Shown: piece after piece, positions 15,343 through 39,544 of the stretch
Position numbering within the stretch: position 1 is the first letter of the stretch
Layout of the letters: every line of letters begins with the position of its first letter
Notes under the pieces: generated by a model
The model's input: only the letters and a program-made list of their open reading frames with translations
Told to the model about the DNA's origin: nothing
Databases searched by the model: none
Translations under genes and position numbers: made by a program
Sequence record: PQ433350.1
DNA: 45,511 bases
Strand: one strand, 5' to 3'
Source of the DNA: Escherichia phage vB_Ec-G8

Positions 15343-15762
15343 ATGCAAATTACAGACAAAGAAGATTACATTGAGTTTTACCCAGGCCCGGTTAAGTCAT
15401 GCCCGAAAGAGGATGACGAACAAATCTTTTGCTCTGATTGGGTTAAGTATAACTACCCGGAGATGGTATTTTTCCACTGCGTAAATGAGGGCAAGAAAAC
15501 CATTGGTCAAGCAAGAAAAGATCAGGCGAAGGGGTTGCTTAAGGGCGTATCAGACTGCTTATTCCTGATACCTGAATCGCTGCGAGGGAAATATCCTTTC
15601 GGGGCTATAGAGCTAAAGAGGGCTGGTAAAACTCAAGCAAGTCCAGTCAGCGAAGAACAGAAAGCATTTCTGAAAAGTGTAATGGAATCAGGCGGTTTCT
15701 CGGCAGTCGCCTACGGACGTGAGGGTTTTCTTGCAGCATTCAAAGAAATGATTTCAAAATAG
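15343..15762 (+). CDS. VRR-NUC domain nuclease
   Basis: 139 aa; PD-(D/E)xK-type motif (SDCLFLIP...GAIELKR); start overlaps the helicase stop; TAG stop inside a boundary element. Confidence 0.7.
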   Translation: MQITDKEDYIEFYPGPVKSCPKEDDEQIFCSDWVKYNYPEMVFFHCVNEGKKTIGQARKDQAKGLLKGVSDCLFLIPESLRGKYPFGAIELKRAGKTQASPVSEEQKAFLKSVMESGGFSAVAYGREGFLAAFKEMISK

Positions 15763-15777
15763 CACGAATTGCTAAAG
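15759..15777 (+). promoter_or_regulatory. Boundary element copy, precedes 15839 ORF
   Basis: ATAGCACGAATTGCTAAAG with upstream TAG stop inside. Confidence 0.6.
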
Positions 15778-15838
15778 ACGTTTCGGTGAGTTGGTGTATT
15801 ATCTATTCATCGAAACGAAACTCAGAGAGAGAAACAAA

Positions 15839-16033
15839 ATGACCACTATCTATACCGGTAAAATCTACGAATCACGCAAAACTGGTTATGAATATGAATT
15901 AGTAATCACCGCTGATTGTTATGTTCTTGATGATGGTGAAGGTTATGCTTTCGAAGTTAGTCCAACCTACAAAGATGATTTAGAAACTGTTAAAAACGCA
16001 TTTGGCGAAAAATTTGATGAGGTGTCAGAATGA
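15839..16033 (+). CDS. Hypothetical protein (64 aa)
   Basis: ATG 15839 preceded by the conserved element leader (CATCGAAACGAAA...GAGAGAGA); ORF-track start 15791 is TTG. Confidence 0.5.
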   Translation: MTTIYTGKIYESRKTGYEYELVITADCYVLDDGEGYAFEVSPTYKDDLETVKNAFGEKFDEVSE

Positions 16034-17304: not shown

Positions 17305-18459
17305 ATGGCAACTGCAAAAATCACCAACGAACAATTGCGCGAAGAGCTGGAAAATGGCATGACCAACAAGGCCATCGCAGAGAAGTACGGAATGAACATT
17401 CGCAATGTTGAGTTGCGTCGCAGTAAATTGGCGAAGCAGGGTGAAGGTCACGGTCGTGATGTTAGTAACCTAATCCCTCAAGGGTATGCTGTAAAAGGTG
17501 TGTCTAGCTTAATTGGTGCAGATGGTGAGATTAAAGGGCAGTGGGTTAAATCAGAGGTTGACAAGGAACGCCAGCAAGAACTAATGCAAATTGTTGTTGA
17601 GGAGCTTAAGAAGGATTTACCTAAGTATAAGGCTGTCAACCACTCAGGAGAGATTACTAATTCTGAAATTCTCAACCTCTACACCATCACCGACCATCAC
17701 ATTGGGATGCTTGCCTGTTCAGAGGAGGGTGGTGATAATTATGACACCAAGATTGCTGAGAAATTAGCATTAGACTGGTTCAGTAGTGCCGTTGCAATGA
17801 GTCCGAACAGCGATGAGTGCATAATTAACTTTTTGGGGGACGAGGCTCACTACGACTCAATGAAAGCCGTAACCCCAATGAGTGGTCACATTCTTTCTGC
17901 TGATACTAGGTTATTCCGAATGATTCGAACTCAGATTAAATTAATCAAGTCAGCTGTAAGCATGTGTCTGGTTAAGCATAAAAAGGTTAAGTTATTGATT
18001 TGTGAGGGAAATCACAACCCGGTATCTTCATTGTGGTTGCGCGAGATGTTTCATGAAGTATTTATTGAAAATGAGCGAGTTGAAGTGAATCGCGAAGTCT
18101 CCCCTTATTACGCATATGAATTTGGAGACGTTATGATTGCTATGCATCACGGGCATTGCGCTAACTTCTCCCGAGTTGAATCAGCAATAATTGCCAAGTA
18201 TCGTGAGATGTTTGGTAAATCAAAGTTCGCATACACACATCTAGGCCACCTGCACCATAGAGCTGTTAAGGAAACTAGCTTGATGATTATTGAGCAGCAC
18301 CAAACGCTTGCTGCAAAAGATGAGTACTCATCCAAAGGTGGGTACTTCTCTGGGCGCAGCGCTAACGTTATTACGTACCACAAGAAGTATGGAGAAGTTA
18401 GTCGAGTGAGCATTCCCGTTGAAATGCTTCGTGACGCAAACCCTGAATCCAAATACTAA
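17305..18459 (+). CDS. Calcineurin-like metallophosphoesterase with N-terminal HTH domain
   Basis: 384 aa; ordered phosphoesterase motifs DHH (TDHHIG), GDxxxxD (GDEAHYD), GNH (EGNHN), HHGH, GHLHH; N-terminal ~50 aa HTH-like. Confidence 0.7.
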   Translation: MATAKITNEQLREELENGMTNKAIAEKYGMNIRNVELRRSKLAKQGEGHGRDVSNLIPQGYAVKGVSSLIGADGEIKGQWVKSEVDKERQQELMQIVVEELKKDLPKYKAVNHSGEITNSEILNLYTITDHHIGMLACSEEGGDNYDTKIAEKLALDWFSSAVAMSPNSDECIINFLGDEAHYDSMKAVTPMSGHILSADTRLFRMIRTQIKLIKSAVSMCLVKHKKVKLLICEGNHNPVSSLWLREMFHEVFIENERVEVNREVSPYYAYEFGDVMIAMHHGHCANFSRVESAIIAKYREMFGKSKFAYTHLGHLHHRAVKETSLMIIEQHQTLAAKDEYSSKGGYFSGRSANVITYHKKYGEVSRVSIPVEMLRDANPESKY

Positions 18460-18477
18460 TAGCACTTTTTGTCAAAA
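18459..18477 (+). promoter_or_regulatory. Boundary element variant, precedes HNH endonuclease
   Basis: ATAGCACTTTTTGTCAAAA followed by GAAA-loop hairpin and GAGAGGAG RBS. Confidence 0.5.
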
Positions 18478-18530
18478 CTATACCCGCGAAAGCGGGTATT
18501 ATTGTTTTATAGAAACGAGAGGAGATTGAA

Positions 18531-19004
18531 ATGAATTGGCACGATTATTACGAATATTCAGATGGTTATTTGTACAGAAAGAACCACAAGGTATCATCTT
18601 ATAACGGAGTTAAGGCCGGGTATGTTGATTTGAGAGGTTATGTTAGGACTAAGCTGTTTTCAAAGATGACTTTTGCCCATCGAGTAATATGGGAAATGCA
18701 TAACGGAGAAGTTCCTGAAGGTATGGAGATCGATCACATTAATGGAGTTAAGCACGATAATCGGATAGAGAATTTGAGATGTGTGGATAGGTTTATCAAC
18801 TGCAAGAACGCATCAAAGAGATCTGACAACAAGAGCGGAACAACTGGAGTTAGTTATTCAAGCTCAAAGCAAAGATGGATAGTGCAATTGCAAAAAGATG
18901 GCGTTAGGGAGTCAAAATCCTTTATGGATAAATTTGACGCAGAAGTCTACGCTAAAAATTTCTACGCAGCAAACCCAGAATTTACAGAGAGGCACGGTAA
19001 ATAG
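18531..19004 (+). CDS. HNH homing endonuclease with AP2-like DNA-binding domain
   Basis: 157 aa; HNH block (AHRVIWEMHNG...IDHINGVKHDNRIENLR); own upstream element and GAGGAG RBS. Confidence 0.85.
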   Translation: MNWHDYYEYSDGYLYRKNHKVSSYNGVKAGYVDLRGYVRTKLFSKMTFAHRVIWEMHNGEVPEGMEIDHINGVKHDNRIENLRCVDRFINCKNASKRSDNKSGTTGVSYSSSKQRWIVQLQKDGVRESKSFMDKFDAEVYAKNFYAANPEFTERHGK

Positions 19005-19020
19005 CACTTTTTGCCTAAAG
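19001..19020 (+). promoter_or_regulatory. Boundary element copy, precedes 19086 ORF
   Basis: ATAGCACTTTTTGCCTAAAG, hairpin, CATAAT, CACATCGAAACGAG leader. Confidence 0.6.
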
Positions 19021-19085
19021 CATGCCGTAGAAATGCGGCATAATCACCACATCGAAACGAGATGAAACAAACGAGGAAACACAAG

Positions 19086-19262
19086 ATGACTAAAATGATT
19101 TATTGCACCAAGAACAACTCCAAGACGCTTCCATTTACAGTTAACCAGCCGTACAATGCAGAGTATCAGGGTGACGGATATTACAAGATTTACGGAGATG
19201 ATATGACGTGGATTTTAGCACCGATTGATGGTTCGCTGGTTGAATTTATTATAGCAGACTAG
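19086..19262 (+). CDS. Hypothetical protein (58 aa)
   Basis: ATG 19086 preceded by the conserved leader (CACATCGAAACGAG...CGAGGA); followed by a strong terminator. Confidence 0.45.
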   Translation: MTKMIYCTKNNSKTLPFTVNQPYNAEYQGDGYYKIYGDDMTWILAPIDGSLVEFIIAD

Positions 19263-20902: not shown

Positions 20903-22486
20903 TCACCCCAGCAGTCGCGGATTAATGTAAACTTTATCACCAATCAGGCACGTATAGTTTTTCTCATCAAGCATTGGCAGTAAGTGATCTTTAATCTTCG
21001 TCATCACTCCAGCCTGAGCCTCGAACGGCTTAACCTTGCGAGCAGCTTCATACAATGAGCGAATACCAACTACGCCCTTACCGTTTTTGCCTTGCTTGAT
21101 CAGAATATCAATCAGCTTATTCATCTCGGCATTGTCGCCAGCGTGACCAGCTGCGTTAGCAGATGACAAATAAGTCTTGCTCAGTTCCTGAAACATAATA
21201 ACAGCTTCTTGCATCGTATCTAGCTCGATCTCTCTAGACTTACGCGGACTCCCGCCATTTGGGTTAAACCAGTTACGCACGGTATGAAGAACCGCCGCAA
21301 TTCGGATGGCCTGCTTGTCGAATTTACCCAGGGCGCCGCGCAACATTGTGTGTGAATACTTACCGCCGTCAGCAAGGTGAGGTTCCATTTCCTGACGCGC
21401 GCGGTTGAGATACTTCATTGCTGAGTTGCTCACTGTCAACTTAACATCCTGCTCATTCATTATTTCGTGAACAAGTCGGAAGTAATCAGCCTTCAATGCG
21501 CCATCAATTGGCTCGTAAGTTGAATCTCCATTTTCATCAACGAATACACGTTCGCCAAGGAATGACTTCTCGCGGACCAAAAGGAAGCGCTCAGATACAC
21601 CGATACCACGCGCACCAGCGTTCATAATAGCGTTGATTGTCTCATCCTGCGCAATTACGGAGATACAGCCCATGGCAACGAAGCTCATGTTGTTTTCTGC
21701 ATTAGCACGCGCGATAGATACGTTACCAGCATCCCATGCTTTAAGCACAAGCTCGCTGTTCGTTTTCTTTGAGCCGTCACCATAGGTCATACCAAGCAGT
21801 GAGTTTACGCTAGTCGCCTCATCAGAGATCACTGCGAAATTACCCTGGCGATTGTTTATTCGCGCAAGACCCTCAGGTGTTGTATCTGATACCGGGAATA
21901 CGATATCACATAGTTTCTCCAGTTTTTCCTCCAGCTCTTCTTTTTCCTCAAAAAGAGAGGCCATCTCTGACGGAGATTTTTCCTGCTTCATCTCTTTTGA
22001 TAACGCAGATAGTTTGGCCATAATCTTTTTGCGCTCACGCTTTCTAACTTCATTCAGCCGCTCAGTCTCAGCGATCATTGGAGAAATCGAAAGTGAGTTG
22101 ATTGCTGATTTACCAGTCGAAGGAGGCTGGCTAGTCACGACGTAAAGAGATGTTGGCTGCTGAGTCCCGTGATACTCGACAGTGAATCGGCCCAGCATAG
22201 CAGCGGAAATACACCCAAGGAAGTGCATGTATGCTGAAGACTCTGGGAACTGAACAGAGCGGGCAATATTTGCTGACAGCTTACCAACAACATCAATGTC
22301 ATTACCTAGTGAGATTACAGGGTATTTATCATTAGCCGCATCAATCTCGACCGGAGCCTTCCAGAATGATTGAGACTGGCGATAGCCATTGGCATTAATG
22401 GCGACTCGCAGTGGCGGGAGGTTGTCAGCAGCAGCAATTGCCATAACCTGTTCAACAGATAGTTTATCTTCGTTGAAATCAAACAT
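20903..22486 (-). CDS. P-loop NTPase (Walker A/B), replication-associated ATPase-like
   Basis: 527 aa; Walker A (QPPSTGKS), Walker B (FAVISDEA); GGAGAG RBS; upstream element variant with TGaTATAAT extended -10. Confidence 0.7.
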   Translation of the reverse strand: MFDFNEDKLSVEQVMAIAAADNLPPLRVAINANGYRQSQSFWKAPVEIDAANDKYPVISLGNDIDVVGKLSANIARSVQFPESSAYMHFLGCISAAMLGRFTVEYHGTQQPTSLYVVTSQPPSTGKSAINSLSISPMIAETERLNEVRKRERKKIMAKLSALSKEMKQEKSPSEMASLFEEKEELEEKLEKLCDIVFPVSDTTPEGLARINNRQGNFAVISDEATSVNSLLGMTYGDGSKKTNSELVLKAWDAGNVSIARANAENNMSFVAMGCISVIAQDETINAIMNAGARGIGVSERFLLVREKSFLGERVFVDENGDSTYEPIDGALKADYFRLVHEIMNEQDVKLTVSNSAMKYLNRARQEMEPHLADGGKYSHTMLRGALGKFDKQAIRIAAVLHTVRNWFNPNGGSPRKSREIELDTMQEAVIMFQELSKTYLSSANAAGHAGDNAEMNKLIDILIKQGKNGKGVVGIRSLYEAARKVKPFEAQAGVMTKIKDHLLPMLDEKNYTCLIGDKVYINPRLLG

Positions 22487-22543
22487 TACTTCTCTCCGTG
22501 TTGTTTCTGAGCGGCCATTATATCAGCGACCGCTTATAATTCA

Positions 22544-22562
22544 TTATCAATTTGTGCTATTT
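22544..22562 (-). promoter_or_regulatory. Boundary element variant, precedes P-loop ATPase gene
   Basis: Minus-strand AAATAGCACAAATTGATAA followed by TGaTATAAT extended -10. Confidence 0.6.
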
Positions 22563-22911
22563 ACAGGTATTGAGCCTCGAAGTGGTACGTCTGGCAAAGA
22601 GTGTAGAAACCAACATCCTCGCTACGGTAGAGCTGCCAGGCATTACCATCCTCATCGTAAATGTAACCAGCATTTTGCCCCAATCCTGCATGAAGTGCCA
22701 CCTGGTAACGTTTCTCTTCTTTAAAGTCTTTTTTAACTCCTGATTTATGGTTAACCTTCGTGCAGTAAATAGTTTTGGTCTTAATGTATTTGCCGCGCTC
22801 TTCCAGGTTAATCCATTTGCCATCTTTCTTGATTTGTTCTACACCATCTTTAACTCGAGCTTTGTATAATACGTTATCGTTGCTAATGAAGTTTTTAGTA
22901 ATCGTTGTCAT
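22561..22911 (-). CDS. Hypothetical protein (116 aa)
   Basis: ORF preceded on the minus strand by element leader (TCATCGAAACGAAACACAAAAAGG); TAA stop abuts an element. Confidence 0.5.
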   Translation of the reverse strand: MTTITKNFISNDNVLYKARVKDGVEQIKKDGKWINLEERGKYIKTKTIYCTKVNHKSGVKKDFKEEKRYQVALHAGLGQNAGYIYDEDGNAWQLYRSEDVGFYTLCQTYHFEAQYL

Positions 22912-22973
22912 TTTGTTTGCCTTTTTGTGTTTCGTTTCGATGAGATGAATATATAGGAAAAGCCCAGAAGGGC

Positions 22974-22993
22974 TTTAGCAATTAGTGCTATTT
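22974..22993 (-). promoter_or_regulatory. Boundary element copy, precedes 22911 ORF
   Basis: Minus-strand AAATAGCACTAATTGCTAAA + hairpin + TCATCGAAACGAAAC leader. Confidence 0.6.
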
Positions 22994-23047: not shown

Positions 23048-23230
23048 CTATCTATAAAATTCGGCCTCTTCTGTAGTTACTGGTATTGTGTAATTATTTA
23101 CCTTAATAATCCATGTATAACCATCATAATCAATCGCATCATAAACATCACCAACATTAACGCCTATTTTGTCAAGACTATCTGAACTTGTTTCATATGT
23201 TACTGTATTATCTGTAATTATTACTTTCAT
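23048..23230 (-). CDS. Hypothetical protein (60 aa)
   Basis: ATG 23230 preceded by element leader (CCATCGAAACGTGAGG); ORF-track start 23290 rejected. Confidence 0.45.
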   Translation of the reverse strand: MKVIITDNTVTYETSSDSLDKIGVNVGDVYDAIDYDGYTWIIKVNNYTIPVTTEEAEFYR

Positions 23231-23282
23231 TTTGTACCTCACGTTTCGATGGAAAGATAATAGCGCATCCTTGCGACTCTGT

Positions 23283-23301
23283 TTTAGCAATTCGTGCTAT
23301 T
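23283..23301 (-). promoter_or_regulatory. Boundary element copy, precedes 23230 ORF
   Basis: Minus-strand AATAGCACGAATTGCTAAA; upstream ORF stops at the internal TAA. Confidence 0.6.
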
Positions 23302-24255: not shown

Positions 24256-24459
24256 CTCTTCAACGTACTCGCTACAACTCGGGATTTTACTCCCGGCCCG
24301 GCATCCTAACAAAAGGACCCGCTCGGCGCTTTGGTGGGTGAGGTAACGCTTCCTCACATTGCGCGGTAGTATTTACCCTTTTTAGTCTCTTTCGAGAGTG
24401 ACTCAGAGTCTGCTACCGTGTCGATGAGATTAAGTATACGCATAGTTATCCACACTGTC

Positions 24460-24478
24460 TTTAGCAAAAAGTGCTATT
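24460..24478 (-). promoter_or_regulatory. Boundary element copy at the leftward edge of control region B
   Basis: Minus-strand AATAGCACTTTTTGCTAAAG. Confidence 0.55.
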
Positions 24479-24577: not shown

Positions 24578-24665
24578 GAAAAGTGAAATGAAGTGGTGAG
24601 TGAGTGAATGAAAGATGGATGGGCTACCATACAAGTTGATTTTGATTCTGGCTGAGCCATTTTTG

Positions 24666-24990
24666 CGTATACGCGTTATAAAAGTTATGCCTTGTAGATG
24701 ATGCCACCCTCCGTAGGAATCGTGTACGCCTATAACGCTGAATTACGCAATGGTTACACTATAATATCTATACATAACAACCATTTAGTAGTATTATTAT
24801 TATTATATATATTACTATGTATATCATGTATATCCCCCTTGCGGGGAGGGTCGATAGTTTTTCTATGAAAATGACATTTTCTATATATATAAGGATAGGT
24901 ATATACCCTCCGCGTTTTCCGCGGAAATTAATCTACAGGCAAATTACATGCACTATAGCTGGGCTGAGGTGGCAAAAAACGTAACCAGGG
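24666..24990. repeat. Divergent control region B (homologous to 5627-5895)
   Basis: Shared blocks 24743-24782, 24794-24830, 24953-24966; extra hairpins (CCCC-ttgc-GGGG; CCGCG-ttttc-CGCGG). Confidence 0.7.
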
Positions 24991-25082
24991 CCAATATAAA
25001 CACGAAATAACACTTGATAACGTGTATATGTGTGTTATTATGGATTCATCTTAACGAAGGGCAACCAATCAGGAGTAATGAA

Positions 25083-25691: not shown

Positions 25692-25710
25692 ATAGCACTT
25701 TTTGCCTAAC
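25692..25710 (+). promoter_or_regulatory. Boundary element copy, precedes 25772 ORF
   Basis: ATAGCACTTTTTGCCTAAC, GCCA-agga-TGGC hairpin, TGgCATAAT, CATCGAAACGAGAG leader. Confidence 0.65.
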
Positions 25711-25771
25711 GCGGTAATGCCAAGGATGGCATAATAGCCTCATCGAAACGAGAGATACCAAGGAAAACAAA

Positions 25772-25960
25772 ATGTCTAAGCGCATCACTAAAGAACTTAA
25801 AGTACTGAACAAAGAAAACGTAATCACCATCCTGACAATGTTTGGCTACAACGAAGAATCTGCCATTGCAAAGGTTGAATCTGGTTACGATGTTGCGGTA
25901 CGAAGCATGCCGGAAGCAACCTCAAAAGGTATCGCCGACTTCCTGGCTACATGTTACTAA
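25772..25960 (+). CDS. Hypothetical protein (62 aa)
   Basis: Preceded by a complete boundary element and leader. Confidence 0.5.
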   Translation: MSKRITKELKVLNKENVITILTMFGYNEESAIAKVESGYDVAVRSMPEATSKGIADFLATCY

Positions 25961-26015
25961 GTTATCTTACAAGGCATCTCGTGGGGTGCCTCAGTAAGAC
26001 AACCGGAGATAGAGC

Positions 26016-26201
26016 ATGAAAACCAAAATGATTCACAAGTCAGAAGTAAAAATTGGCGACACGGTAATTCACTGCGGTGAGATGAAGACGGTTGGCATGG
26101 AAACATTTGGCAAGGATGAGTTTATGGGACTCCTACTGTGGGGTGATAGCTATCGCTGCGGCTACAAGATGGTTGAGGTTGTAACTGATGTTAAGTTTTG
26201 A
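26016..26201 (+). CDS. Hypothetical protein (61 aa)
   Basis: GGAGA RBS; TGA stop abuts an element. Confidence 0.5.
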   Translation: MKTKMIHKSEVKIGDTVIHCGEMKTVGMETFGKDEFMGLLLWGDSYRCGYKMVEVVTDVKF

Positions 26202-26219
26202 ATAGCACGAATTGCTAAA
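26202..26219 (+). promoter_or_regulatory. Boundary element copy, precedes 26287 ORF
   Basis: TGA-ATAGCACGAATTGCTAAA; TGaTATAGT extended -10 downstream. Confidence 0.6.
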
Positions 26220-26286
26220 CCTTCCGCAAGGCCATTTGATATAGTGGTCTTGTTGAAGCAAAACAATCAATCATGGGGTTACACAA

Positions 26287-26469
26287 ATGCAAGTTTATAA
26301 ATCACCTGGCGGCGCTCGTTACGTTGTTGTTGATGGCAGGGTGTACTGCAAGCCGCTAACCGGATTCACATTTCGCTCGTCAATGACGGTGGATCGATAC
26401 CTTGAGTTGATAGGTTGGGGATTTCTTAGGTTTGAAAAGGTAATCAAGCCTATAATGACCGTCAAATAG
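26287..26469 (+). CDS. Hypothetical protein (60 aa)
   Basis: ORF between two element copies; weak RBS. Confidence 0.45.
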   Translation: MQVYKSPGGARYVVVDGRVYCKPLTGFTFRSSMTVDRYLELIGWGFLRFEKVIKPIMTVK

Positions 26470-26484
26470 CACGAATTGTTAAAA
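26466..26484 (+). promoter_or_regulatory. Boundary element variant
   Basis: ATAGCACGAATTGTTAAAA; leader CCACACATCAACCACAAG. Confidence 0.5.
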
Positions 26485-26661
26485 TGGGATTCATCCTGAA
26501 TGGTATGATCCACACATCAACCACAAGAATGGAAGTTAAGTGACGATATACGAACATAAATTCAGCAGTAGGGGTATTGATATGCTCCTGCACTATGTAG
26601 ACGAAAAATACGCAAATCTCATGCTTAATACGCATGGCGGCACAATAACGAGGATTGAGAT

Positions 26662-26925
26662 ATGAGTAAGTACAACCGTGAGATTATCGGCCTGGATGGG
26701 GAAGTAACCACAGTGGATGTATATCGAGTCCTGGATGCATTCCAGGTAACAGACCCAGCTATACAGCACGCAATCAAGAAGATGCTGTGCACTGGACTTA
26801 GAGGGCATAAGGACTATCTTACTGACATTGAAGACTCCATTGAATCACTGCAAAAAGCCAGGGAACTTTACGATCAGCGCAAGAGTTACGAGCGGCGATA
26901 CAATTTATCTTTTACAGATAAATAG
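26662..26925 (+). CDS. Hypothetical protein (87 aa)
   Basis: CGAGGA RBS; TAG stop lies inside an element. Confidence 0.5.
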   Translation: MSKYNREIIGLDGEVTTVDVYRVLDAFQVTDPAIQHAIKKMLCTGLRGHKDYLTDIEDSIESLQKARELYDQRKSYERRYNLSFTDK

Positions 26926-26939
26926 CACGAATTGCTAAA
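26922..26939 (+). promoter_or_regulatory. Boundary element copy, precedes 26995 ORF
   Basis: ATAGCACGAATTGCTAAA, hairpin, TGtTATAGT extended -10, CACACCAAACGAGAGG. Confidence 0.65.
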
Positions 26940-26994
26940 CCCGCTCAGAAGGGTTTTGTTATAGTTAGTTCACACCAAACGAGAGGAAATAAAG

Positions 26995-27213
26995 ATGATT
27001 ACTATTAACCTGTCAGATAAACAAGCAGCAGAACTCAAGTCCATGCTTTCAATCTTTGAGAAGCCAAATGACCAGGTAATTGCCAAAGAGGTAGTGGCTC
27101 AGATTAACAACCAGCAATTCGACGTAAGTGACTTCGAGTCATCGCGCCAGTACGAGGTAATGAGTGTTAATGCTGCATACCTGACTAACTGGGATAATGC
27201 GACTAAGAAATGA
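26995..27213 (+). CDS. Hypothetical protein (72 aa)
   Basis: Preceded by element + leader (CACACCAAACGAGAGG). Confidence 0.5.
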   Translation: MITINLSDKQAAELKSMLSIFEKPNDQVIAKEVVAQINNQQFDVSDFESSRQYEVMSVNAAYLTNWDNATKK

Positions 27214-27359
27214 TTTTATACATACATGAGTACTGGACGGGGAAGTTTAACACAGTTCGACATGTCCGGGTTTACGAATATTATGTAAATGCATTCAATC
27301 AGCAGAAGGTTCTTGGTGGCACCATCAAGGTTTGCGATGTTGTGGATGAGATTTACTAA
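27210..27359 (+). CDS. Hypothetical small protein (49 aa)
   Basis: ATGA-coupled; TAA stop immediately precedes an element. Confidence 0.35.
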   Translation: MILYIHEYWTGKFNTVRHVRVYEYYVNAFNQQKVLGGTIKVCDVVDEIY

Positions 27360-27378
27360 ATAGCACGAATTGCTAAAG
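27360..27378 (+). promoter_or_regulatory. Boundary element copy, precedes 27434 ORF
   Basis: TAA-ATAGCACGAATTGCTAAAG, TGtTATAGT, CCACATCAAAACTAACGAGG. Confidence 0.65.
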
Positions 27379-27433
27379 CAGTCTTGTGGTAATTTGTTAT
27401 AGTTACCACATCAAAACTAACGAGGTTATAAGA

Positions 27434-27538
27434 ATGAGTGAATTAATTAAAACTATCGCGGACTATCCATTTGCTTCGCTTTTTCTTGCTCTTGCAATAT
27501 ATGAAATTGTAAAGATTATTGTCAAATGTATTAAATAG
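27434..27538 (+). CDS. Putative 34-aa membrane peptide
   Basis: Hydrophobic core FASLFLALAIYEIVKIIV; bounded by elements on both sides. Confidence 0.3.
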   Translation: MSELIKTIADYPFASLFLALAIYEIVKIIVKCIK

Positions 27539-27553
27539 CACTAATTTCTAAAA
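27535..27553 (+). promoter_or_regulatory. Boundary element variant, precedes 27609 ORF
   Basis: ATAGCACTAATTTCTAAAA, TGcTATAGT, CCACATCAAAACGAAACAGG. Confidence 0.6.
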
Positions 27554-27608
27554 CATTATCGGGGTATCTTGCTATAGTTACCACATCAAAACGAAACAGG
27601 AAGCAGAA

Positions 27609-27788
27609 ATGAGATTTCAACAATCAGAACCTAAACTCCAGGCTAACCACTTCGACGGATACGCAACATTCATCATCGCTCAGGCGTGCGGTGTGCGTGA
27701 GGAGCCACAGGTTCACACCATCCACTTAACCGAAGAGCAAGCTCGAGAACTGGCTTACGAAATTCTTGAGCAATTGAATCGAATTTAA
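27609..27788 (+). CDS. Hypothetical small protein (59 aa)
   Basis: Preceded by element + leader (CACATCAAAACGAAACAGGAAG). Confidence 0.4.
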   Translation: MRFQQSEPKLQANHFDGYATFIIAQACGVREEPQVHTIHLTEEQARELAYEILEQLNRI

Positions 27789-27837
27789 TTGGCCCAAGGC
27801 GCATTATAACGAACGATAATTTAAGTAAGGTGATTCT

Positions 27838-27999
27838 ATGATTAAGGTTGTTTATGTAGGCGAGAGTGATTATGTGGCACTAATTCAGCGTGGTGACGTG
27901 TTATTTGCAGAGCTGAGTGATGATGGTAATTGCTACATCGTAAAGAACAAGAATGGCGAGGATATTTACCTCTCAAAAGATGAGGTCATTATTTACTAA
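27838..27999 (+). CDS. Hypothetical small protein (53 aa)
   Basis: AAGGTGA RBS. Confidence 0.4.
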   Translation: MIKVVYVGESDYVALIQRGDVLFAELSDDGNCYIVKNKNGEDIYLSKDEVIIY

Positions 28000-28121
28000 T
28001 GGATAACTACGAATCACCAAGTCAGTGGGCCAGGCGAATGCAGGACGAAGCCAAAACTGGTGAAGAGGCGATGGCTTACTACGAGCTGGCGAAAATGTGG
28101 CAAGGACGGAGTGCAGAATGA
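27999..28121 (+). CDS. Hypothetical small protein (40 aa)
   Basis: TAATG-coupled micro-ORF. Confidence 0.3.
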   Translation: MDNYESPSQWARRMQDEAKTGEEAMAYYELAKMWQGRSAE

Positions 28122-28261
28122 GCTTCATTGAATACGCAATTGCATGTGAACGACTGGTCTTTGATATGAAGACCTTCCACTGGTTCATCATCAAGGATTT
28201 AATCAAGCCGTACAAGCAAGGTGTTACGCCAGAGGCTTTTGTTAAGTCATTCTATAAATAG
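28118..28261 (+). CDS. Hypothetical small protein (47 aa)
   Basis: ATGA-coupled; TAG stop inside an element. Confidence 0.35.
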   Translation: MSFIEYAIACERLVFDMKTFHWFIIKDLIKPYKQGVTPEAFVKSFYK

Positions 28262-28275
28262 CACGAATTGCTAAA
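28258..28275 (+). promoter_or_regulatory. Boundary element copy, precedes 28332 ORF
   Basis: ATAGCACGAATTGCTAAA, GCCA-tgga-TGGC hairpin, TATAAT, CCACATCAACACAACGAGAG. Confidence 0.65.
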
Positions 28276-28331
28276 CGCAGTCGCCATGGATGGCATATAA
28301 TTACCACATCAACACAACGAGAGATTGAGAA

Positions 28332-28571
28332 ATGTTCGGACTAAATGAAGCGATGTTCAATGCTGTAAAGCGCCAGGCCGCAAAGTTGAACGAAGAGTAC
28401 ACCAATCTATCGCCAAAGCAGCGTAAGGACGATAAGCAGGTTGCGGCATTGATTTCAAAGATGTGGGAGCCGGTTTTCACAATCATTAGTAGAGATCGAT
28501 TTGTGTGGGTATCTGGTTATCTTAAGGGCCGTGTTGGTCATGACGAAAATGGGAATAGCCTTTATGAGTGA
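28332..28571 (+). CDS. Hypothetical protein (79 aa)
   Basis: Preceded by element + leader (CACATCAACACAACGAGAGATTGAG). Confidence 0.5.
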   Translation: MFGLNEAMFNAVKRQAAKLNEEYTNLSPKQRKDDKQVAALISKMWEPVFTIISRDRFVWVSGYLKGRVGHDENGNSLYE

Positions 28572-28845: not shown

Positions 28846-28923
28846 GCTCTGCTAGCTCAACGGGAAAGAAGCAACGACCTTCTAAGTCGTAGGTTACTGG
28901 TTCGAATCCAGTGCGGAGCGCCA
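28846..28923 (+). tRNA. tRNA-Arg (anticodon UCU)
   Basis: Cloverleaf folded by hand: 7-bp acceptor stem (GCTCTGC/GCGGAGC with one G-U), anticodon stem ACGAC/GTCGT, loop CTTCTAA (anticodon TCT at 28881-28883), T-arm ACTGG-TTCGAAT-CCAGT, discriminator G and encoded CCA. Confidence 0.85.
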
Positions 28924-29207: not shown

Positions 29208-29251
29208 AAAGTGTTATACCCTCGTTAAGTTTAGTTTCTCTCGTTGTTTTG

Positions 29252-29274
29252 GCCCTCGCTTGAGGGCTTTTTTT
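29252..29274 (+). terminator. Rho-independent terminator before terminase genes
   Basis: GCCCTC-gctt-GAGGGC + T7. Confidence 0.75.
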
Positions 29275-29294
29275 CGTCTGTAATATGGTATAAT
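29268..29294 (+). promoter_or_regulatory. Promoter-like extended -10 (TGgTATAAT) upstream of the terminase genes
   Basis: TGGTATAAT at 29286-29294 directly after the terminator T-run; CGTCTGTA box shared with 35863-35870. Confidence 0.4.
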
Positions 29295-29841: not shown

Positions 29842-31407
29842 ATGTCTTTAGTATGGGAAGAAATGACCATTCAGGAAAAGATGGCTGTTAAGGCGATATC
29901 AGAACACAGCTTCGAGGGTTTCCTTCGTTGCTGGTTCCAGATTACACAAGGCGAACGATACATCCCTAACTGGCATCACAAGTACTTGTGCAGAATCATT
30001 GACGAGATTATTGCAGGCGAAAGAAAGGACACCATTATCAACATAGCACCAGGCAGCGGAAAGACGGAAATTGCCTCAATCCACTTCCCGGCCTATTCGA
30101 TGGTTAAGCTTAGGAAGGTGCGCAACCTTAACATCTCTTTTGCTGACTCCCTGGTTAAGCGTAACTCGAAGCGAGTGCGTGACCTTATCAAGTCTCAAGA
30201 ATTTCAGTCACTCTGGCCATGCAAGTTTGGCACTTGCAAAGACGATGAGCTTCAGGTTCTTGATGAGAGTGGCAAGGTTAGATTTGAGTCAATATCAAAG
30301 GCGGCTGGAGGCCAGATTACTGGCGCTCGCGGTGGGTACATAACCGAAACATACAGCGGAGCCGTTCTTTTGGATGACTTTGACAAACCCGCAGATATGT
30401 TATCAGCAGTGTACCGCTCGAATAATCACGTAATGCTTAAAAATACGATTCGCTCACGTCGAGCCAGTTCTGTAAAAGGCAAAGCGACACCAATCATTTC
30501 GATACAGCAGCGGCTTCACGTCAATGACTCAACCTGGTTCATGATGGAGGGGGGTATGGGTATCGACTTTGACTTGGTTAAGATACCGGCTCTGGTTACT
30601 GAGGATTACATCGACTCGCTCCCTGACTGGATTAAAGATCAGTTTGCTGAGGACGTACTAAGCAGCGAATATATTGAGCGAGATGGCGTAAAGTACTACA
30701 GCTACTTTCCTAAAAAGGAATCCGTAAACGACCTGGTGGCAATGTGGGATAGCGACCCCTACACTTTCCTCAGCCAGTATCAGCAGGAGCCAGTAGCGCT
30801 GGGTGGCAACCTAATTAACGTGGACTGGTTCCAGCGAATCAGTGATACGTTCAGACCTCCAGCTAAGTACGACTATCGATTCATAACTTGCGATACCGCA
30901 ATGACCACTAAAAGTTACAGCGACTTCTCTGTTCTTCAGTTGTGGGGCTATAAAGATGCTAAGATTTACCTTATTGATCAGCGCAGGGGTAAATGGGAGG
31001 CCCCAGAGTTGGAGGCTGAACTGCTGGACTTCGAGAAGAAATCAAGGGCAACCAGTCAGTCAGATGGTATCCTCAGAAAGATTATTATCGAGAAGAAAGC
31101 GTCTGGTATCGGCCTGATTCAATCAGCTGGCAGGGTTATGCGAACACCGATAGAGCCATACGTACCGGATAATGACAAGCTAACCAGGGTGATGAGTGCA
31201 CTACCACAGATTAAGGCTGGTAACGTAGTTCTTCCAGAGTCATCGCCGTGGCTAAACGGATTGCTCACTGAGGTTGCGGCTTTTACGGCAGATGACTCGC
31301 ATAAGCACGACGACCAAATTGACTGTCTAACAATGGCGGTAAACCTTGTGCTTAACATCGCGGATGATCCTAAGGCGAGACTGATGCGCATAGCGGGAAT
31401 GAAATAG
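29842..31407 (+). CDS. Terminase large subunit
   Basis: 521 aa; N-terminal ATPase with Walker A (APGSGKT), C-terminal nuclease-like acidic residues; TAG stop inside an element. Confidence 0.9.
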   Translation: MSLVWEEMTIQEKMAVKAISEHSFEGFLRCWFQITQGERYIPNWHHKYLCRIIDEIIAGERKDTIINIAPGSGKTEIASIHFPAYSMVKLRKVRNLNISFADSLVKRNSKRVRDLIKSQEFQSLWPCKFGTCKDDELQVLDESGKVRFESISKAAGGQITGARGGYITETYSGAVLLDDFDKPADMLSAVYRSNNHVMLKNTIRSRRASSVKGKATPIISIQQRLHVNDSTWFMMEGGMGIDFDLVKIPALVTEDYIDSLPDWIKDQFAEDVLSSEYIERDGVKYYSYFPKKESVNDLVAMWDSDPYTFLSQYQQEPVALGGNLINVDWFQRISDTFRPPAKYDYRFITCDTAMTTKSYSDFSVLQLWGYKDAKIYLIDQRRGKWEAPELEAELLDFEKKSRATSQSDGILRKIIIEKKASGIGLIQSAGRVMRTPIEPYVPDNDKLTRVMSALPQIKAGNVVLPESSPWLNGLLTEVAAFTADDSHKHDDQIDCLTMAVNLVLNIADDPKARLMRIAGMK

Positions 31408-31421
31408 CACAAATTGCTAAA
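31404..31421 (+). promoter_or_regulatory. Boundary element copy inside late operon, precedes moron 31477
   Basis: ATAGCACAAATTGCTAAA, GCCA-cgga-TGGC, TATAGT, TTCACACAAAAGAGAGGAG. Confidence 0.65.
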
Positions 31422-31476
31422 CACTAAAGCCACGGATGGCGTATAGTTACTTCACACAAAAGAGAGGAGAAGAAAG

Positions 31477-31809
31477 ATGAAGGCAGTATTTAAAGGTTAT
31501 AAAAAAGCTGGTCGTTTGGAATTTACTATTGGTAAGATTTATGAGTTATCAGAAACACGCGGAGTGGGTGGATATATGGGGGTGACTGATGACGGTGGCT
31601 TTCGGGCAATATTTATCCCAGACAACATCTATGATTTCGAGGTGTTGATCCCAGATGAATTTATCGGTAAAGAAAGGCAATTCAAATATTACATCAATGG
31701 CGAAGCTGTTTCTAAAGTCAAGTTCGATGATACACTGTTATGCGTCAAGGAATTTAAATCTGATGGCATTGATACATCATCAATCAAGTTCGAAGTAAAA
31801 TTCGAGTAA
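31477..31809 (+). CDS. Hypothetical moron protein (110 aa), paralog of 43772-44137
   Basis: Own element + leader upstream and terminator downstream; shares GYKK N-terminal and FEV-x-FE C-terminal blocks with the 43772 ORF. Confidence 0.55.
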   Translation: MKAVFKGYKKAGRLEFTIGKIYELSETRGVGGYMGVTDDGGFRAIFIPDNIYDFEVLIPDEFIGKERQFKYYINGEAVSKVKFDDTLLCVKEFKSDGIDTSSIKFEVKFE

Positions 31810-31830
31810 CCACAAAAGCTATGATAAACT

Positions 31831-31853
31831 AGCCCCTAAATGGGGCTTTTTTA
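31831..31853 (+). terminator. Terminator-RBS module before portal
   Basis: AGCCCC-taaat-GGGGCT + T6 then ATTGGAGA RBS. Confidence 0.75.
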
Positions 31854-31865
31854 TTGGAGAAAAAC

Positions 31866-34769: not shown

Positions 34770-34786
34770 TAGTTAAGACTAAACTA

Positions 34787-34808
34787 ACCCGCTTCGGCGG
34801 GTTTTTTA
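34787..34808 (+). terminator. Rho-independent terminator (UUCG loop)
   Basis: ACCCGC-ttcg-GCGGGT + T6. Confidence 0.75.
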
Positions 34809-34892
34809 TTGCCTATCATCTCATCATTGCGTGGTCTAAAAACTCGTGTATAATGAACACGTAGACACCTAACTGAAAAGGAACAATAAAGA

Positions 34893-35834: not shown

Positions 35835-35840
35835 TAAATG

Positions 35841-35862
35841 GCCCTCTTCGGAGGGCTTTTTT
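35841..35862 (+). terminator. Rho-independent terminator after major capsid gene (UUCG loop)
   Basis: GCCCTC-ttcg-GAGGGC + T6. Confidence 0.8.
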
Positions 35863-35926
35863 ACGTCTGTACCAAATGGATTTGTTGAGTTATAATCACT
35901 CAATCAGATAAACAAAGGAGACAAAA

Positions 35927-37819: not shown

Positions 37820-38476
37820 ATGGCCCATCTCAGCAATGGCACGCAGGTCTTCGTAGAAGGCTCTCGCGGAGCTGCAATTGACGTAACAGCAATTTCTAAC
37901 GCAGTTACCCCTGTTTTAACTGTATCTGACGCATCAGGCTTGGTTGTTGGTGATTACCTGCTTTTCACCTTCTCTGCTTCGACGCTTCTGGCTGACAAGC
38001 AGGTTCGCGTAACTGCAATCTCTGGCACGTCAGTAACTGTTGAAGGTATTGATACCTCCAGCACTACCAAGTTCCCAGCTGGTTTAACTGGTGAAGTTGT
38101 TAAGATCACTTCATGGTTCGAAGTTCCGTGCGTTCAGGACGTATCCACTGATGGCGGCGAGCAGCAGTTCGTTAACTTCCAGTGTCTTTCTGATGACCGT
38201 GAACAGCAGATTCCGACTTATAAATCTGCCGTAACAAACACCTTTACATTTGCTCATGAGTACACTAACCCGGTTTATCCGGTTCTTCGCAACTACGATG
38301 AGTCGGGTCAGGTTGTTGCGATTCGACTGTTCGTACCTCGCGCTAGCGAAATGCGTTTGCAGTCTGGTACTATCGCTTTCAACGACACCCCTACCATTGG
38401 TGTTAACGAAATCGAAACGGTATCCATCGCGGTATCAATCCGCGGTCGACTGTCTTCGGTGGCGGCTGAAGTTTAA
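37820..38476 (+). CDS. Major tail protein
   Basis: 218 aa; position between connector genes and chaperones/tape measure; followed by terminator. Confidence 0.75.
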   Translation: MAHLSNGTQVFVEGSRGAAIDVTAISNAVTPVLTVSDASGLVVGDYLLFTFSASTLLADKQVRVTAISGTSVTVEGIDTSSTTKFPAGLTGEVVKITSWFEVPCVQDVSTDGGEQQFVNFQCLSDDREQQIPTYKSAVTNTFTFAHEYTNPVYPVLRNYDESGQVVAIRLFVPRASEMRLQSGTIAFNDTPTIGVNEIETVSIAVSIRGRLSSVAAEV

Positions 38477-38482
38477 AACACA

Positions 38483-38506: not shown

Positions 38507-38509
38507 TAC

Positions 38510-39530: not shown

Positions 39531-39544
39531 TTATGGAGGCTTAG

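Follow-up and report, generated by a model that had tools for sequence, protein, structure and literature searches.

Repeated intergenic cassettes that carry a promoter together with a hairpin have been described for T4-type phages as promoter-early stem-loops, or PeSLs (Arbiol et al., 2010, PMC2839356; Comeau et al., 2014, PMC4122927), and a T4 middle-promoter variant, PmSL, is also a shuffling cassette (PMC4122927). Here, we analysed a 45,511-nt stretch of DNA from Escherichia phage vB_Ec-G8 (PQ433350.1; the window), for which an original prediction, made from the letters alone, had proposed about 21 copies of a portable gene-boundary element. The cassette idea is not new, as it matches the PeSLs already reported (PMC2839356), of which the present elements are close analogues because their hairpins overlap the -10, stop codons lie in the core and homology breakpoints occur at the elements. 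Both consist of intergenic repeats some 70-100 bp long, in which an upstream stop codon, an upstream conserved region, a -10 and finally SD and ATG follow each other; a stem-loop, often GGGG...CCCC, lies between the promoter boxes or overlaps the -10. Both also cluster among non-essential genes of small size, and both fall where related genomes differ by insertion, deletion or replacement.

Form and occurrence of the element

The window is a nearly complete Rtp-like genome of the Drexlerviridae, the family presumed earlier. Judged from its sequence, the element is a compact promoter cassette at the gene boundary and the standard promoter type of T1-like phages. Its strand-specific layout was as predicted, with upstream stop codon, -10 promoter element and conserved leader with RBS all present, and the core was found at 21 out of 21 predicted places (one starting at 22543, not 22544). 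The form ATAGCAC-N5-TGCTAAA was wrong and gave 0 matches; with N4 the core occurs in 23 copies across the window, and TAGCA-N5-TGCTA had been written correctly. A search of the window allowing up to three mismatches yielded 29 core matches versus 5.6 expected, and no shuffle scored as high. Two copies were added to the earlier set, 13258(+) as helicase promoter and 12778-12795(-) as primase promoter. The copies are as follows (N, nucleotides between core and -10):

4699-4785 (-): cassette; core 4768-4785, -10 TACTAT 4742-4747, ATG 4699-4701; serves the lipoprotein/receptor-binding protein operon; the upstream Rha-like ORF stops at the core TAG
5433-5544 (-): cassette; core 5527-5544 (GATTT variant), -10 TATATT 5501-5506, long leader of 59 nt, ATG 5433-5435 of the Rha-like protein
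7662-7737 (+): cassette; core 7662-7679 (TCGCTAAA variant), -10 TATGAT 7700-7705 within a GGGGTA/TACCCC hairpin, ATG 7735, Erf recombinase
11725-11767 (+): orphan copy; GCTAAG variant, poor -10 AGGCAT, no co-oriented gene; viewed on the - strand, it closely follows a TGaTACAAT -10 and precedes the tail-fibre ATG by ~10 nt
12710-12795 (-): extra copy; core GCAGCACGAAAAGCTAAA 12778-12795 within the final codons of the HTH-regulator gene, N20, CATAAT 12752-12757 in a terminator hairpin loop, ATG 12710-12712, primase
13258-13349 (+): extra copy; core ATAGCATTTTTTGTTAAA 13258-13275, N19, TATTAT 13295-13300, ATG 13347, helicase
15759-15841 (+): cassette; core 15759-15776, TATTAT 15797-15802, ATG 15839; the VRR-NUC gene stops at the core TAG
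18459-18533 (+): cassette; core 18459-18476 (TGTCAAA variant), ACCCGC/GCGGGT hairpin overlapping TATTAT 18497-18502, ATG 18531, HNH endonuclease
19001-19088 (+): cassette; core 19001-19018 (TGCCTAA variant), CATAAT 19039-19044, ATG 19062 or 19086
22484-22560 (-): cassette; core 22543-22560 (TGATAAT variant), TATAAT 22517-22522 bracketed by GCGGTC/GGCCGC, ATG 22484-22486, helicase/ATPase
22909-22991 (-): cassette; core 22974-22991, terminator-like AAAGCCC-ttct-GGGCTTTT in the spacer, TATATT 22948-22953, ATG 22909-22911
23228-23300 (-): cassette; core 23283-23300, TATTAT 23257-23262, ATG about 23228-23230; the upstream ORF stops at TAA, core positions 15-17
24355-24477 (-): cassette; core 24460-24477, N21, TATACT 24433-24438, long leader, start codon 24355-24357
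25692-25774 (+): cassette; core 25692-25709 (TGCCTAA variant), CATAAT 25730-25735, ATG 25772, DUF7421 protein; head of a two-gene module also present in Lw1/RB16
26202-26289 (+): cassette; core 26202-26219, TATAGT 26240-26245 bracketed by AAGGCC/GGTCTT, ATG 26287
26466-26542 (+): cassette; core 26466-26483 (TGTTAAA variant), TATGAT 26504-26509, GTG 26540
26922-26997 (+): cassette; core 26922-26939, terminator-like AAACCC..GGGTTT with T run in the spacer, TATAGT 26960-26965, ATG 26995
27360-27436 (+): cassette; core 27360-27377, TATAGT 27398-27403 bracketed by GTGGTA/TACCAC, ATG 27434, 34-aa ORF
27535-27611 (+): cassette; core 27535-27552 (TTTCTAAA variant), TATAGT 27573-27578, ATG 27609
28258-28334 (+): cassette; core 28258-28275, GCCAT/ATGGC hairpin, TATAAT 28296-28301, ATG 28332
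31404-31479 (+): cassette; core 31404-31421, TATAGT 31442-31447, ATG 31477, virion protein, then portal; the large terminase gene stops at the core TAG
38510-38589 (+): cassette; core 38510-38527, 3' of the major tail gene terminator, TATAGT 38548-38553, ATG 38587
43699-43774 (+): cassette; core 43699-43716, N21, TATAGT 43738-43743, ATG 43772, HNH endonuclease

All copies are co-oriented with the gene that they precede, as had been claimed, except 11725(+) with its poor -10; this orphan is kept in Rtp, OzMSK and T1. Within a set of 102 sites from six genomes, picked by at most three mismatches to the core and hence biased in its conservation statistics, the gap between core and -10 was 20 nt at 87 sites, 21 nt at nine and 19 nt at six. 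The core therefore lies at about -50 to -33 relative to the predicted start, centred near -42. The -10 hexamers were good (TATAGT, TATTAT, TATAAT), although the TGn extension described as frequent was found at only 35 of the 102 sites (7/21 in the window). An A at +7 after the -10, the probable start, occurred at 76/102 sites, and the A-rich leader of 20-35 nt contains the predicted sequence tACCcCATCgAAAC, moderately conserved, and a GAGG-type RBS before the ATG. A -35 hexamer was absent, the best match at 16-18 bp spacing reaching only 2-4 out of 6 positions, and a classical two-hexamer promoter scan showed no excess (18 found, 21 expected) and caught only two elements.

Rtp, OzMSK, T1 and Klebsiella phage KP36 each carry the same architecture ~16-20 times; it occurred eight times in the unrelated podovirus C130_2 and once or twice in the T4-like RB16/Lw1. 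The spacer between core and -10 was wholly diverged, whereas the core and its exact distance were held across subfamilies and in the unrelated podovirus, which argues for selection on a positioned, sequence-specific contact.

Stop codons and hairpins

At 79 sites with a long upstream ORF, the proposed use of the core stop codons by that ORF was confirmed: TAG at core positions 2-4 served in 39 and TAA at positions 15-17 in 11, with an abutting TAA/TGA in about 22. The hairpin predicted to follow the core is a real potential (mean z = -2.6 versus -0.25 for random genomic segments, p = 5e-20); it lies between core and -10, as proposed, at 40 sites, but brackets the -10 at 56. Its sequence varies while the structure is kept, and covariation was seen. 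Only ~13 of 102 hairpins carry a T-rich tail, so most of them give no clear sign of terminator function. The hairpins may act on read-through transcripts from the upstream gene, through attenuation, termination or 3'-end protection, and neighbouring cassettes would thereby be insulated.

The palindrome and the phage regulator

The 5-bp inverted repeat, which had been described as perfect, exists in the consensus only. Across the sites, 73 pairs were broken and one was compensated, substitutions were one-sided (62 in the right arm, 13 in the left), and the asymmetric positions A1, C7, T11, A17 and A18 were conserved as much as the palindromic ones. These data bear on an alternative in which the core is the operator of a Cro-type HTH regulator of the phage (Rtp52/T1 gp23), binding TAGCA-N5-TGCTA as a dimer and activating or repressing all cassette promoters. 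The gene is located as follows:

12772-13281 (-): HTH regulator gene of the Rtp52/T1 gp23 type

The regulator gene, a conserved core gene, was found in 824 phage records, each T1-like in size; its product is 48-65% identical among the window phage, T1 and KP36 and has a conserved HTH. The core consensus does hold a 5+5 inverted repeat centred near -42. The Rtp genome paper of Wietzorrek et al. in J Bacteriol (2006) reportedly attributed conserved inverted repeats preceding Rtp genes, 10 in number, to Rtp52; we take them to be, almost certainly, the present motif, and Rtp has exactly 10 intact TAGCA-N5-TGCTA palindromes. However, Rtp contains 19 sites of full architecture, and neither the 73 broken pairs with their one-sided substitutions nor the equally conserved asymmetric positions fit a dimer site. 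In addition, C130_2 bears eight cassettes and no Rtp52/T1 gp23 homologue was found in it (HMM E = 1, versus 7e-78 for T1). A protein made by the phage would also come too late for the promoters used first after injection, unless there are others. We therefore consider the operator explanation unlikely. A dual-use version is possible, in which a host activator comes first and later meets competition for the site from the phage regulator.

A probable marbox in class II position

The reading of the element as a portable linker overlooked that its core matches a forward marbox in class II position, which would make it an activator site replacing the -35. The published marbox consensus AYNGCACNNWNNRYYAAA had 17 exact matches in the window versus 0.06 expected, and the consensus GCANNWWNTGNNAAA, quoted with the class II definition in PMC12052159, also had 17 versus 0.45 expected. 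At 69 of the 102 sites there was no mismatch to AYNGCACNNWNNRYYAAA. The core, which differs little from the mar marbox, has the forward orientation of class II marbox promoters and varies at degenerate marbox positions, namely 8-10 (N/W) and 14; of the 87 sites spaced by 20 nt, 54 have C at position 14 and 25 have T. Measured in the same way, the marbox-to-(-10) distance in E. coli K-12 is 20 nt for micF, nfo and sodA and 19 nt for fumC. Rob contacts -47G/-45A in a cryo-EM complex (PMC9178005), and the core-to-(-10) distance thus places GCAC within 1 nt of these contacts. In sum, 13 specified positions of a known activator site are matched, with orientation and distance also correct, and chance is an unlikely cause of this agreement. 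Four core positions, -1, 3, 11 and 12, hardly vary although no base is prescribed there by Martin's consensus (that of Sharma requires T at 12). Shared ancestry of the copies could account for this, as could another binder, acting instead or in addition.

T1 thrives in ordinary broth, where none of the known inducers of MarA, SoxS or Rob is present. This favors the possibility that no specific factor is involved and that RNA polymerase reads the core directly (the alpha C-terminal domain using it as an UP-like element, for instance, or sigma region 4 contacting it at an uncommon spacing), or that the core is merely inherited and a strong -10 alone drives the promoters. The good -10 hexamers, TGn at one third of sites and the fairly A/T-rich 3' end of the core point in the same direction. 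On the other hand, TTGCTA lies 22 bp from the -10, beyond the reach of sigma70, GCAC is invariant and not UP-like, and both the retention of core and exact distance next to a diverged spacer and the 13-position match would be left unexplained. Such a factor-free promoter appears quite improbable to us.

Thus, we prefer, as the probable explanation, a promoter cassette whose core is a host-activated forward class II marbox, and we infer from the match that Rob, MarA or SoxS binds it. A monomer of an activator of this host family would bind the core, substitute for the sigma70 region 4/-35 contact and bring RNA polymerase to the -10, as Rob does at micF in the activation complex. The weak -35 matches, the sparse TGn and the two-hexamer scan without excess are signs of such dependence. 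Rob is the likeliest candidate of the family, since its constitutive level is high (PMC9178005), but in the absence of inducers most of it is reportedly sequestered and inactive, with low levels of MarA and SoxS (PMC2787020, PMC9178005). Among phage ORFs of at least 75 aa, no AraC-family protein was found (Pfam), and tblastn of MarA, SoxS and Rob, validated on marA, gave best E values of 0.05-0.4 in six phage genomes. With Rob sequestered and T1 nevertheless vigorous, basal activator, activator-independent activity or phage-triggered release would need to be assumed. A further point against this explanation is that two AT-rich non-coding regions, 5560-5890 and 24660-25010, might contain early promoters independent of a marbox. 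If the host-activator explanation is true, the phage may rely on a stress/drug-resistance regulator of its host to turn on nearly all its genes.

Possible recombination boundaries

When relatives were compared, homology breakpoints fell at elements more often than elsewhere, as suggested previously: 13/22 and 15/22 element junctions were broken, versus 16/52 and 18/52 element-free ones (Fisher p = 0.036 and 0.011 in the two comparisons). The elements are thus preferred, though not exclusive, boundaries, since many element-free junctions were also broken. A module of element, two genes and element is common to the window phage and T4-like phages, and the unit 43699-44193 is missing as a whole from OzMSK. 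The ~70 bp of shared sequence, together with the phage RecE/Erf recombination genes, could make the elements preferred crossover points, and small genes would therefore be gained, lost and swapped as units with their own promoter, as with PeSLs.

It might even be argued from the breakpoint enrichment, the HNH genes located within single cassettes and the module common to different phage families that the repeats serve chiefly for recombination or as linkers (crossover hot spots, or recombinase or homing-enzyme targets), their promoter-like features being incidental. We regard this as very improbable, because strict gene co-orientation, the fixed -10 distance, the conserved start-site context and the RBS are promoter features, and no other promoter type that could serve these genes was in excess.

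Comparison with known systems

PeSLs have a near-consensus sigma70 -35 (TTGACA-N17-TATAAT), whereas here a marbox-type box lies 5 bp further upstream instead. Unlike PeSLs, the present cassettes occur in siphoviruses and one podovirus and serve the whole genome, structural operons included. Terminator activity and mini-circle formation have been demonstrated for PeSLs; most hairpins here are without a U-tail. In T4 middle promoters, an activator box likewise replaces the -35 and teams with a sigma70 -10; however, the MotA box (TGCTT) has its centre at -30 and depends on phage-encoded MotA and AsiA (sigma appropriation), whereas the present box is centred near -42, has the sequence of a host-regulator site and has no phage activator found for it. 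The inverted-repeat reading of Rtp assumes a palindromic phage-regulator operator, in contrast with the 19 architecture-complete Rtp sites, the uncompensated asymmetry in the wider data set and the occurrence of the motif in a phage without the regulator. Finally, E. coli class II mar/sox/rob promoters (micF, nfo, sodA, fumC) share the asymmetric 18-20 bp forward marbox over the -35 position, a -10 19-20 nt past the 18-nt core and a weak or absent -35. The phage copies differ in residing in virulent genomes, at ~20 per 45 kb, with cores much nearer the consensus than most chromosomal marbox sites, and the predicted phage marbox sits within a cassette of stop codon, hairpin and leader.

Genome context and gene content

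The sequence covers nearly the whole genome of an Rtp-like Drexlerviridae phage. Its large terminase shares 97.7% identity with the OzMSK terminase (Escherichia phage OzMSK), and at the DNA level identity with OzMSK, T145P1 and Rtp is 82-89%. Pfam searches identified T1-type structural, lysis, replication and recombination genes (RecE-like exonuclease, Erf, Dam, primase, helicases), together with a Rha-like protein and one Cro-type helix-turn-helix (HTH) regulator homologous to Rtp52 and T1 gp23. A tRNA-Arg gene with anticodon TCT lies in the early region (28846-28923), as in related phages, and nothing but this tRNA was found in an Rfam scan of the window. A poly-Gln CAG/CAA repeat (8757-8816) was observed near the 3' end of the single-strand-binding protein gene.

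A promoter element repeated at gene boundaries

The core of the gene-boundary repeat had first been written as ATAGCAC-N5-TGCTAAA, a form that has 0 matches in the window; the real motif is ATAGCAC-N4-TGCTAAA, which is equivalent to the inverted repeat TAGCA-N5-TGCTA. When up to three mismatches to this core were allowed, 29 matches were found in the window against 5.6 expected. All 21 copies listed in the original prediction are among them (22544 should read 22543), and two additional copies were recognized, at 13258 on the plus strand and at 12778-12795 on the minus strand. The interval originally flagged, 25692-28275, holds seven copies.

The anatomy of the element was examined in 102 architecture-complete sites from six phages (21 in the window, 19 in Rtp, 16 in OzMSK, 20 in T1, 18 in Klebsiella phage KP36 and 8 in Escherichia phage C130_2). 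In the aligned copies, the core is followed by a spacer without sequence conservation and then by a good -10 hexamer, for example TATAGT, TATTAT or TATAAT. Most sites (87) have 20 nt between core and -10, with 21 nt in nine others and 19 nt in the remaining six. On the 3' side of the -10 lies tACCcCA, in which A occupies the seventh position in 76 of the 102 sites; with its pyrimidine-purine context, this A is the expected transcription start. Downstream of the predicted start come TCgAAAC, an A-rich stretch, a GAGG-type ribosome-binding site (RBS) and the start codon, and the predicted leaders are mostly 20-35 nt long. The copies that precede genes are all in forward orientation.

A convincing -35 hexamer could not be identified at these sites: the best match at 16-18 bp spacing reached only 2-4 of 6 positions in the 102 sites. 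The extended -10 (TGn) was present in just 35 of them, and a conventional two-hexamer scan of the 22-32 kb region revealed no promoter excess (18 found vs 21 expected) and detected only 2 elements. On these grounds, the elements look like activator-dependent promoters. Several other promoter assignments were discarded. TTGCTA could not serve as the -35, being 22 bp from the -10. A sigma54 promoter (TGGCAC-N5-TTGC, with GG and GC 10 bp apart and the start 12 nt downstream) was rejected on inspection of the core, which has AG instead of GG, falls 2 nt short of the required spacing and is followed, at a constant 20 nt, by a sigma70 -10. Inspection also showed that spacing and key bases were unsuitable for sigma32 with CCCCAT as its -10. 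The claim that the element supplies stop codons in all three frames proved correct when upstream ORF ends were counted: among 79 sites with a long upstream ORF, the stop codon is the TAG within ATAGCAC in 39, a TAA or TGA directly adjoining the core in about 22, and the TAA within TGCTAAA in 11. Overall, we are highly confident that the element is real, family-wide and the main promoter type of the phage.

Marbox match and class II geometry

The core agrees with the marbox, a DNA site bound by MarA, SoxS and Rob, which are AraC-family activators of E. coli. The marbox consensus was reportedly given by Martin et al. in 1999 as AYnGCACnnWnnRYYAAAY (AYNGCACNNWNNRYYAAA). The window contains 17 exact matches to this pattern against 0.06 expected, and 69 of the 102 sites in the six phages agree with it without any mismatch. 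For a second definition, gcannwwntgnnaaa (GCANNWWNTGNNAAA; PMC12052159), there were 17 exact matches in the window (0.45 expected) and 20 in T1 (0.76 expected). Variation within the core is concentrated at the degenerate marbox positions, namely 8-10 (N/W) and 14, where 54 of the 87 sites spaced at 20 nt have C and 25 have T. The phage core (GCACTTTTTGCTAAA or GCACGAATTGCTAAA) is nearly identical to the marbox of the mar operon, CCACGTTTTGCTAAA. A difficulty for the marbox reading is that several positions left free by the consensus of Martin et al. are invariant in the phage sites.

In class II promoters, a forward marbox overlaps the -35 (PMC12052159). We measured E. coli K-12 promoter regions by the same method as the phage sites and obtained ACAGCACTGAATGTCAAA-N20-TAGAAT for micF, N20-TATCAT for nfo, N20-TATAAT for sodA and ATGGCACGAAAGACCAAA-N19-AATAAT for fumC. 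Thus, the phage spacing is the class II spacing. This geometry also puts GCAC within one base of -47G/-45A, which are contacted by Rob in the Rob-RNAP-micF complex, whose cryo-EM structure has the -35 region taken by Rob instead of sigma region 4 (PMC9178005). The class II features found at the sequence level are an asymmetric marbox, forward orientation, a fixed distance to the -10 and a poor or absent -35. The upstream box is thus most likely a marbox of class II, recognized by a host activator of the MarA/SoxS/Rob group.

An orphan marbox, a GCTAAG variant, was observed at 11725-11790 and is conserved at Rtp 33762, OzMSK 31322 and T1 34902. On its own strand it has no usable -10 and a bidirectional terminator comes next; on the opposite strand it lies just downstream of the extended -10 TGaTACAAT, ∼10 nt before the tail-fibre start codon. 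An activator bound there would repress or block tail-fibre expression.

Host activator or phage regulator

No AraC-like protein was found by Pfam among all 85 window ORFs of at least 75 aa. When MarA, SoxS and Rob were used as tblastn queries against the six phage genomes, the best E values were only 0.05-0.4 and no MarA-like protein was recovered; the queries were validated on the real E. coli marA gene. A phage-encoded MarA-like protein was thus rejected as the binder, having appeared in neither search. The two other candidates encoded by the phage were the Rha-like protein and the Cro-type HTH regulator. C130_2 is a Hungariovirus with P22-like virion genes, a T1-like replication module and 8 complete cassettes. 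Homologues of the regulator (profile HMM best E = 1; T1 control 7e-78) and of the Rha-like protein were both missing from this phage, and neither protein was retained as the binder. For the regulator gene, all of the matches listed were records of T1-like size.

The regulator is the obvious candidate from the phage itself, and the core could be its palindromic operator. Wietzorrek et al. are said to have described, in the Rtp genome paper of 2006, 10 conserved inverted repeats upstream of genes and to have attributed them to Rtp52. The number of intact TAGCA-N5-TGCTA sites in Rtp is exactly 10, which makes it very probable that the motif had already been seen. However, complete-architecture sites in Rtp number 19, against only 10 intact palindromes. 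Across all sites, the palindrome pairs were broken in 73 cases and compensated in 1, which shows that two-fold symmetry is not maintained. Moreover, substitutions in the palindrome are one-sided (62 in the right arm vs 13 in the left), asymmetric core positions are conserved to the same degree as symmetric ones, and the 8 cassettes of C130_2 occur without a regulator homologue, so that in this phage site and regulator do not co-occur. We therefore rejected the palindromic operator as the selected feature, since its symmetry is broken without compensation. Considering that the HTH regulator itself (Rtp52/T1 gp23) is well conserved, it may still have a secondary role at the core, in competition with the host activator proposed here.

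Hairpins within the element

The segment from the core AAA to +8 was folded and compared with shuffled sequences, giving a mean z of -2.6 against -0.25 for random genomic segments (p = 5e-20). The stem lies between core and -10 in 40 sites and brackets the -10 in 56. With the register fixed so that spacer positions 9-14 face the six bases immediately 3' of the -10, at least five of the six pairs are formed in 18 sites, compared with a mean of 7.0 and a maximum of 14 in 1000 permutations. The 18 sites contain 14 different arm sequences, such as GGGGTA/TACCCC, GTGGTA/TACCAC, AAGGCC/GGCCTT, AACGTC/GGCGTT and AGGGGA/TCCCCT. Thus, the structure of the hairpin is selected and its sequence is not. 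Because the 3' arm is upstream of the predicted start, the hairpin could form only in read-through RNA or in DNA. A T-rich tail follows only ∼13 of the 102 hairpins and a strict terminator test was mostly negative; a few hairpins, such as those at 22974, 26922 and Rtp 2359, look like textbook terminators with the marbox AAA as A-tract. One copy shares its -10 with the terminator of another gene:

12710-12795, minus strand, primase promoter copy; its marbox is contained in the codons for the C terminus (…EAARKAKE*) of the HTH regulator

The -10 of this copy, CATAAT, lies in the loop of a terminator hairpin that belongs to the regulator gene, GGATGTGC..GGTACATCC+T7.

Other repeats in the window

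A second linker family was observed at gene boundaries in the structural operons. It consists of TAAACTAaCCCGCTTCGGCGGGTTTTTTATT followed by GGAGAAA..ATG, and each linker combines a stop codon, an intrinsic terminator and an RBS, with stem sequences varying within the one family:

31821-31855, second-family linker
34776-34810, second-family linker
38473-38507, second-family linker
39498-39532, second-family linker
42898-42932, second-family linker
29250-29282, variant of the second-family linker
35839-35871, variant of the second-family linker

In addition, 5560-5890 and 24660-25010 are paralogous AT-rich regions that are apparently non-coding. They contain a 96-nt core repeat (5638-5733 and 24735-24830, 85% identity), repeated GTTACA/ATATAC motifs and a common end, ...CTATAGCTGGGCTG. 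Each of them borders a leftward-reading cassette where a rightward gene block begins. These regions might be origins, packaging signals or marbox-independent early promoters, the last of which would be a further difficulty for the marbox reading.

Distribution beyond T1-like phages and gene shuffling

An exact-core scan of IMG/VR returned mostly T1-size contigs, and also C130_2 and the T4-like phage Lw1. In Lw1 (NC_021344.2, 10278-10911), two complete cassettes, leader included, flank small genes. The Lw1 proteins gp017 and gp016 have homologues (E = 7e-7 and 4e-11) in the window, encoded by genes 25772-25960 and 26016-26201, which are exactly the two genes between elements 25692 and 26202. 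The T4-like phage RB16 (HM134276.1) has one cassette, at 10271, the only copy in its first 30 kb. The one or two cassettes of these T4-like Pseudotevenvirus genomes are located in the hyperplastic region between the dexA and topoisomerase genes, where they precede small genes homologous to those at 25772-26201 in the window. DNA similar to the Lw1/RB16 cassette region was found in RB43, Miller, CfP1 and KP27, and the two-gene module is widespread in RB43/RB16-like and KP27-like myoviruses. Thus, a cassette-bounded gene module is common to different phage families.

Two further records were noticed. The 61-kb viral contig IMGVR_UViG_2974607408_000001 has a single complete-looking cassette on the minus strand (8542-8559), ATAGCACGTTTTGCTAAA-N21-TACTAT followed by gtACCCATAGCAAC. 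Over 11 kb, Stutzerimonas phage vB_SstS_STP9 (OR754315.1) and the enterobacterial phage C130_2 are 95% identical; should the former have the marbox-type promoters of C130_2, its stated Pseudomonas-group host would be surprising.

Comparisons with close relatives supported the original suggestion that the elements delimit portable cassettes. Breakpoints relative to OzMSK and Rtp fell inside elements well above their 4.5% share of the genome (p about 1e-8), and, in the same two comparisons, breakpoints were present at 13/22 and 15/22 element-bearing gene junctions vs 16/52 and 18/52 element-free ones (Fisher p = 0.036 and 0.011, respectively). The two-gene module shared with Lw1 and RB16 agrees with this suggestion as well, and it should be noted that many breakpoints lie elsewhere. 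Two HNH homing-endonuclease genes (18459-19004 and 43699-44193) each form one single marbox cassette. The former has an element on both sides, as in T1 (41956-42510), and the latter, element plus HNH gene, is missing in OzMSK, where the gap opens precisely at base one of the core and closes immediately ahead of the following gene. OzMSK has other sequence in place of the block 25692-26992, and the two breakpoints of this replacement coincide with element edges.

Implications of a proposed host-activator dependence

Taken further, the marbox reading would mean that T1-like phages (the classical phage T1 among them), C130_2-like podoviruses and a few T4-like mobile modules wire almost their whole transcription programme to MarA/SoxS/Rob through near-consensus class II marboxes, a proposal for which we consider the chances evenly balanced. 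If true, it would explain transcription in a family that has no RNA polymerase or sigma factor of its own and almost no canonical -35/-10 promoters, and it would offer a clear example of a virulent phage dependent on a host stress-regulon activator for essentially all of its promoters. Phage productivity would be tied to the mar/sox/rob resistance response: sensing of bile salts, fatty acids, phenolics, antibiotics or oxidants by the host would increase phage gene expression, and multidrug-resistant clinical mutants of the mar type would support the phage better rather than less well. This would be relevant to phage-antibiotic synergy, to behaviour in the bile-rich gut and to the choice of Drexlerviridae for therapy. 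A difficulty for this reading is that T1 grows vigorously in plain broth. Rob is constitutive and abundant but reportedly sequestered until released by bile salts, fatty acids or dipyridyl, and MarA and SoxS need induction; growth of T1 in broth would therefore require basal activity, activator-independent transcription or phage-induced release. The host-activator hypothesis is directly testable with standard reagents.

Both the motif and the cassette concept have precedents, and the host-activator reading appears to be new. Among the papers found in our literature search, none ties phage promoters to marboxes or Rob and none prints the motif; genome papers on T1-like phages report generic sigma70 promoter predictions, and the element sites are not annotated in the KP36, T1 and Rtp records.

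Comparison with PeSLs of T4-type phages

The promoter-early stem-loops (PeSLs) of T4-type phages begin with the stop codon of the upstream gene and end with the Shine-Dalgarno (SD) sequence and ATG; they act as promoters and terminators, and recombination between them shuffles genes (PMC2839356). PeSLs contain TTGACA-N17-TATAAT, and the related "PmSLs" a MotA box (PMC4122927). On sequence criteria, the phage element is a PeSL-like cassette with a predicted stem-loop, and the idea of promoter cassettes as modular shuffling units is thereby extended from T4-type myoviruses to siphoviruses and a podovirus. The two differ in promoter type: PeSLs have a near-consensus sigma70 -35 at 17-bp spacing, whereas the elements described here have a -10 and no -35. 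On the other hand, they share the composite intergenic repeat of stop codon, promoter, stem-loop, SD and ATG, as well as the link to gene gain, loss and replacement among relatives.
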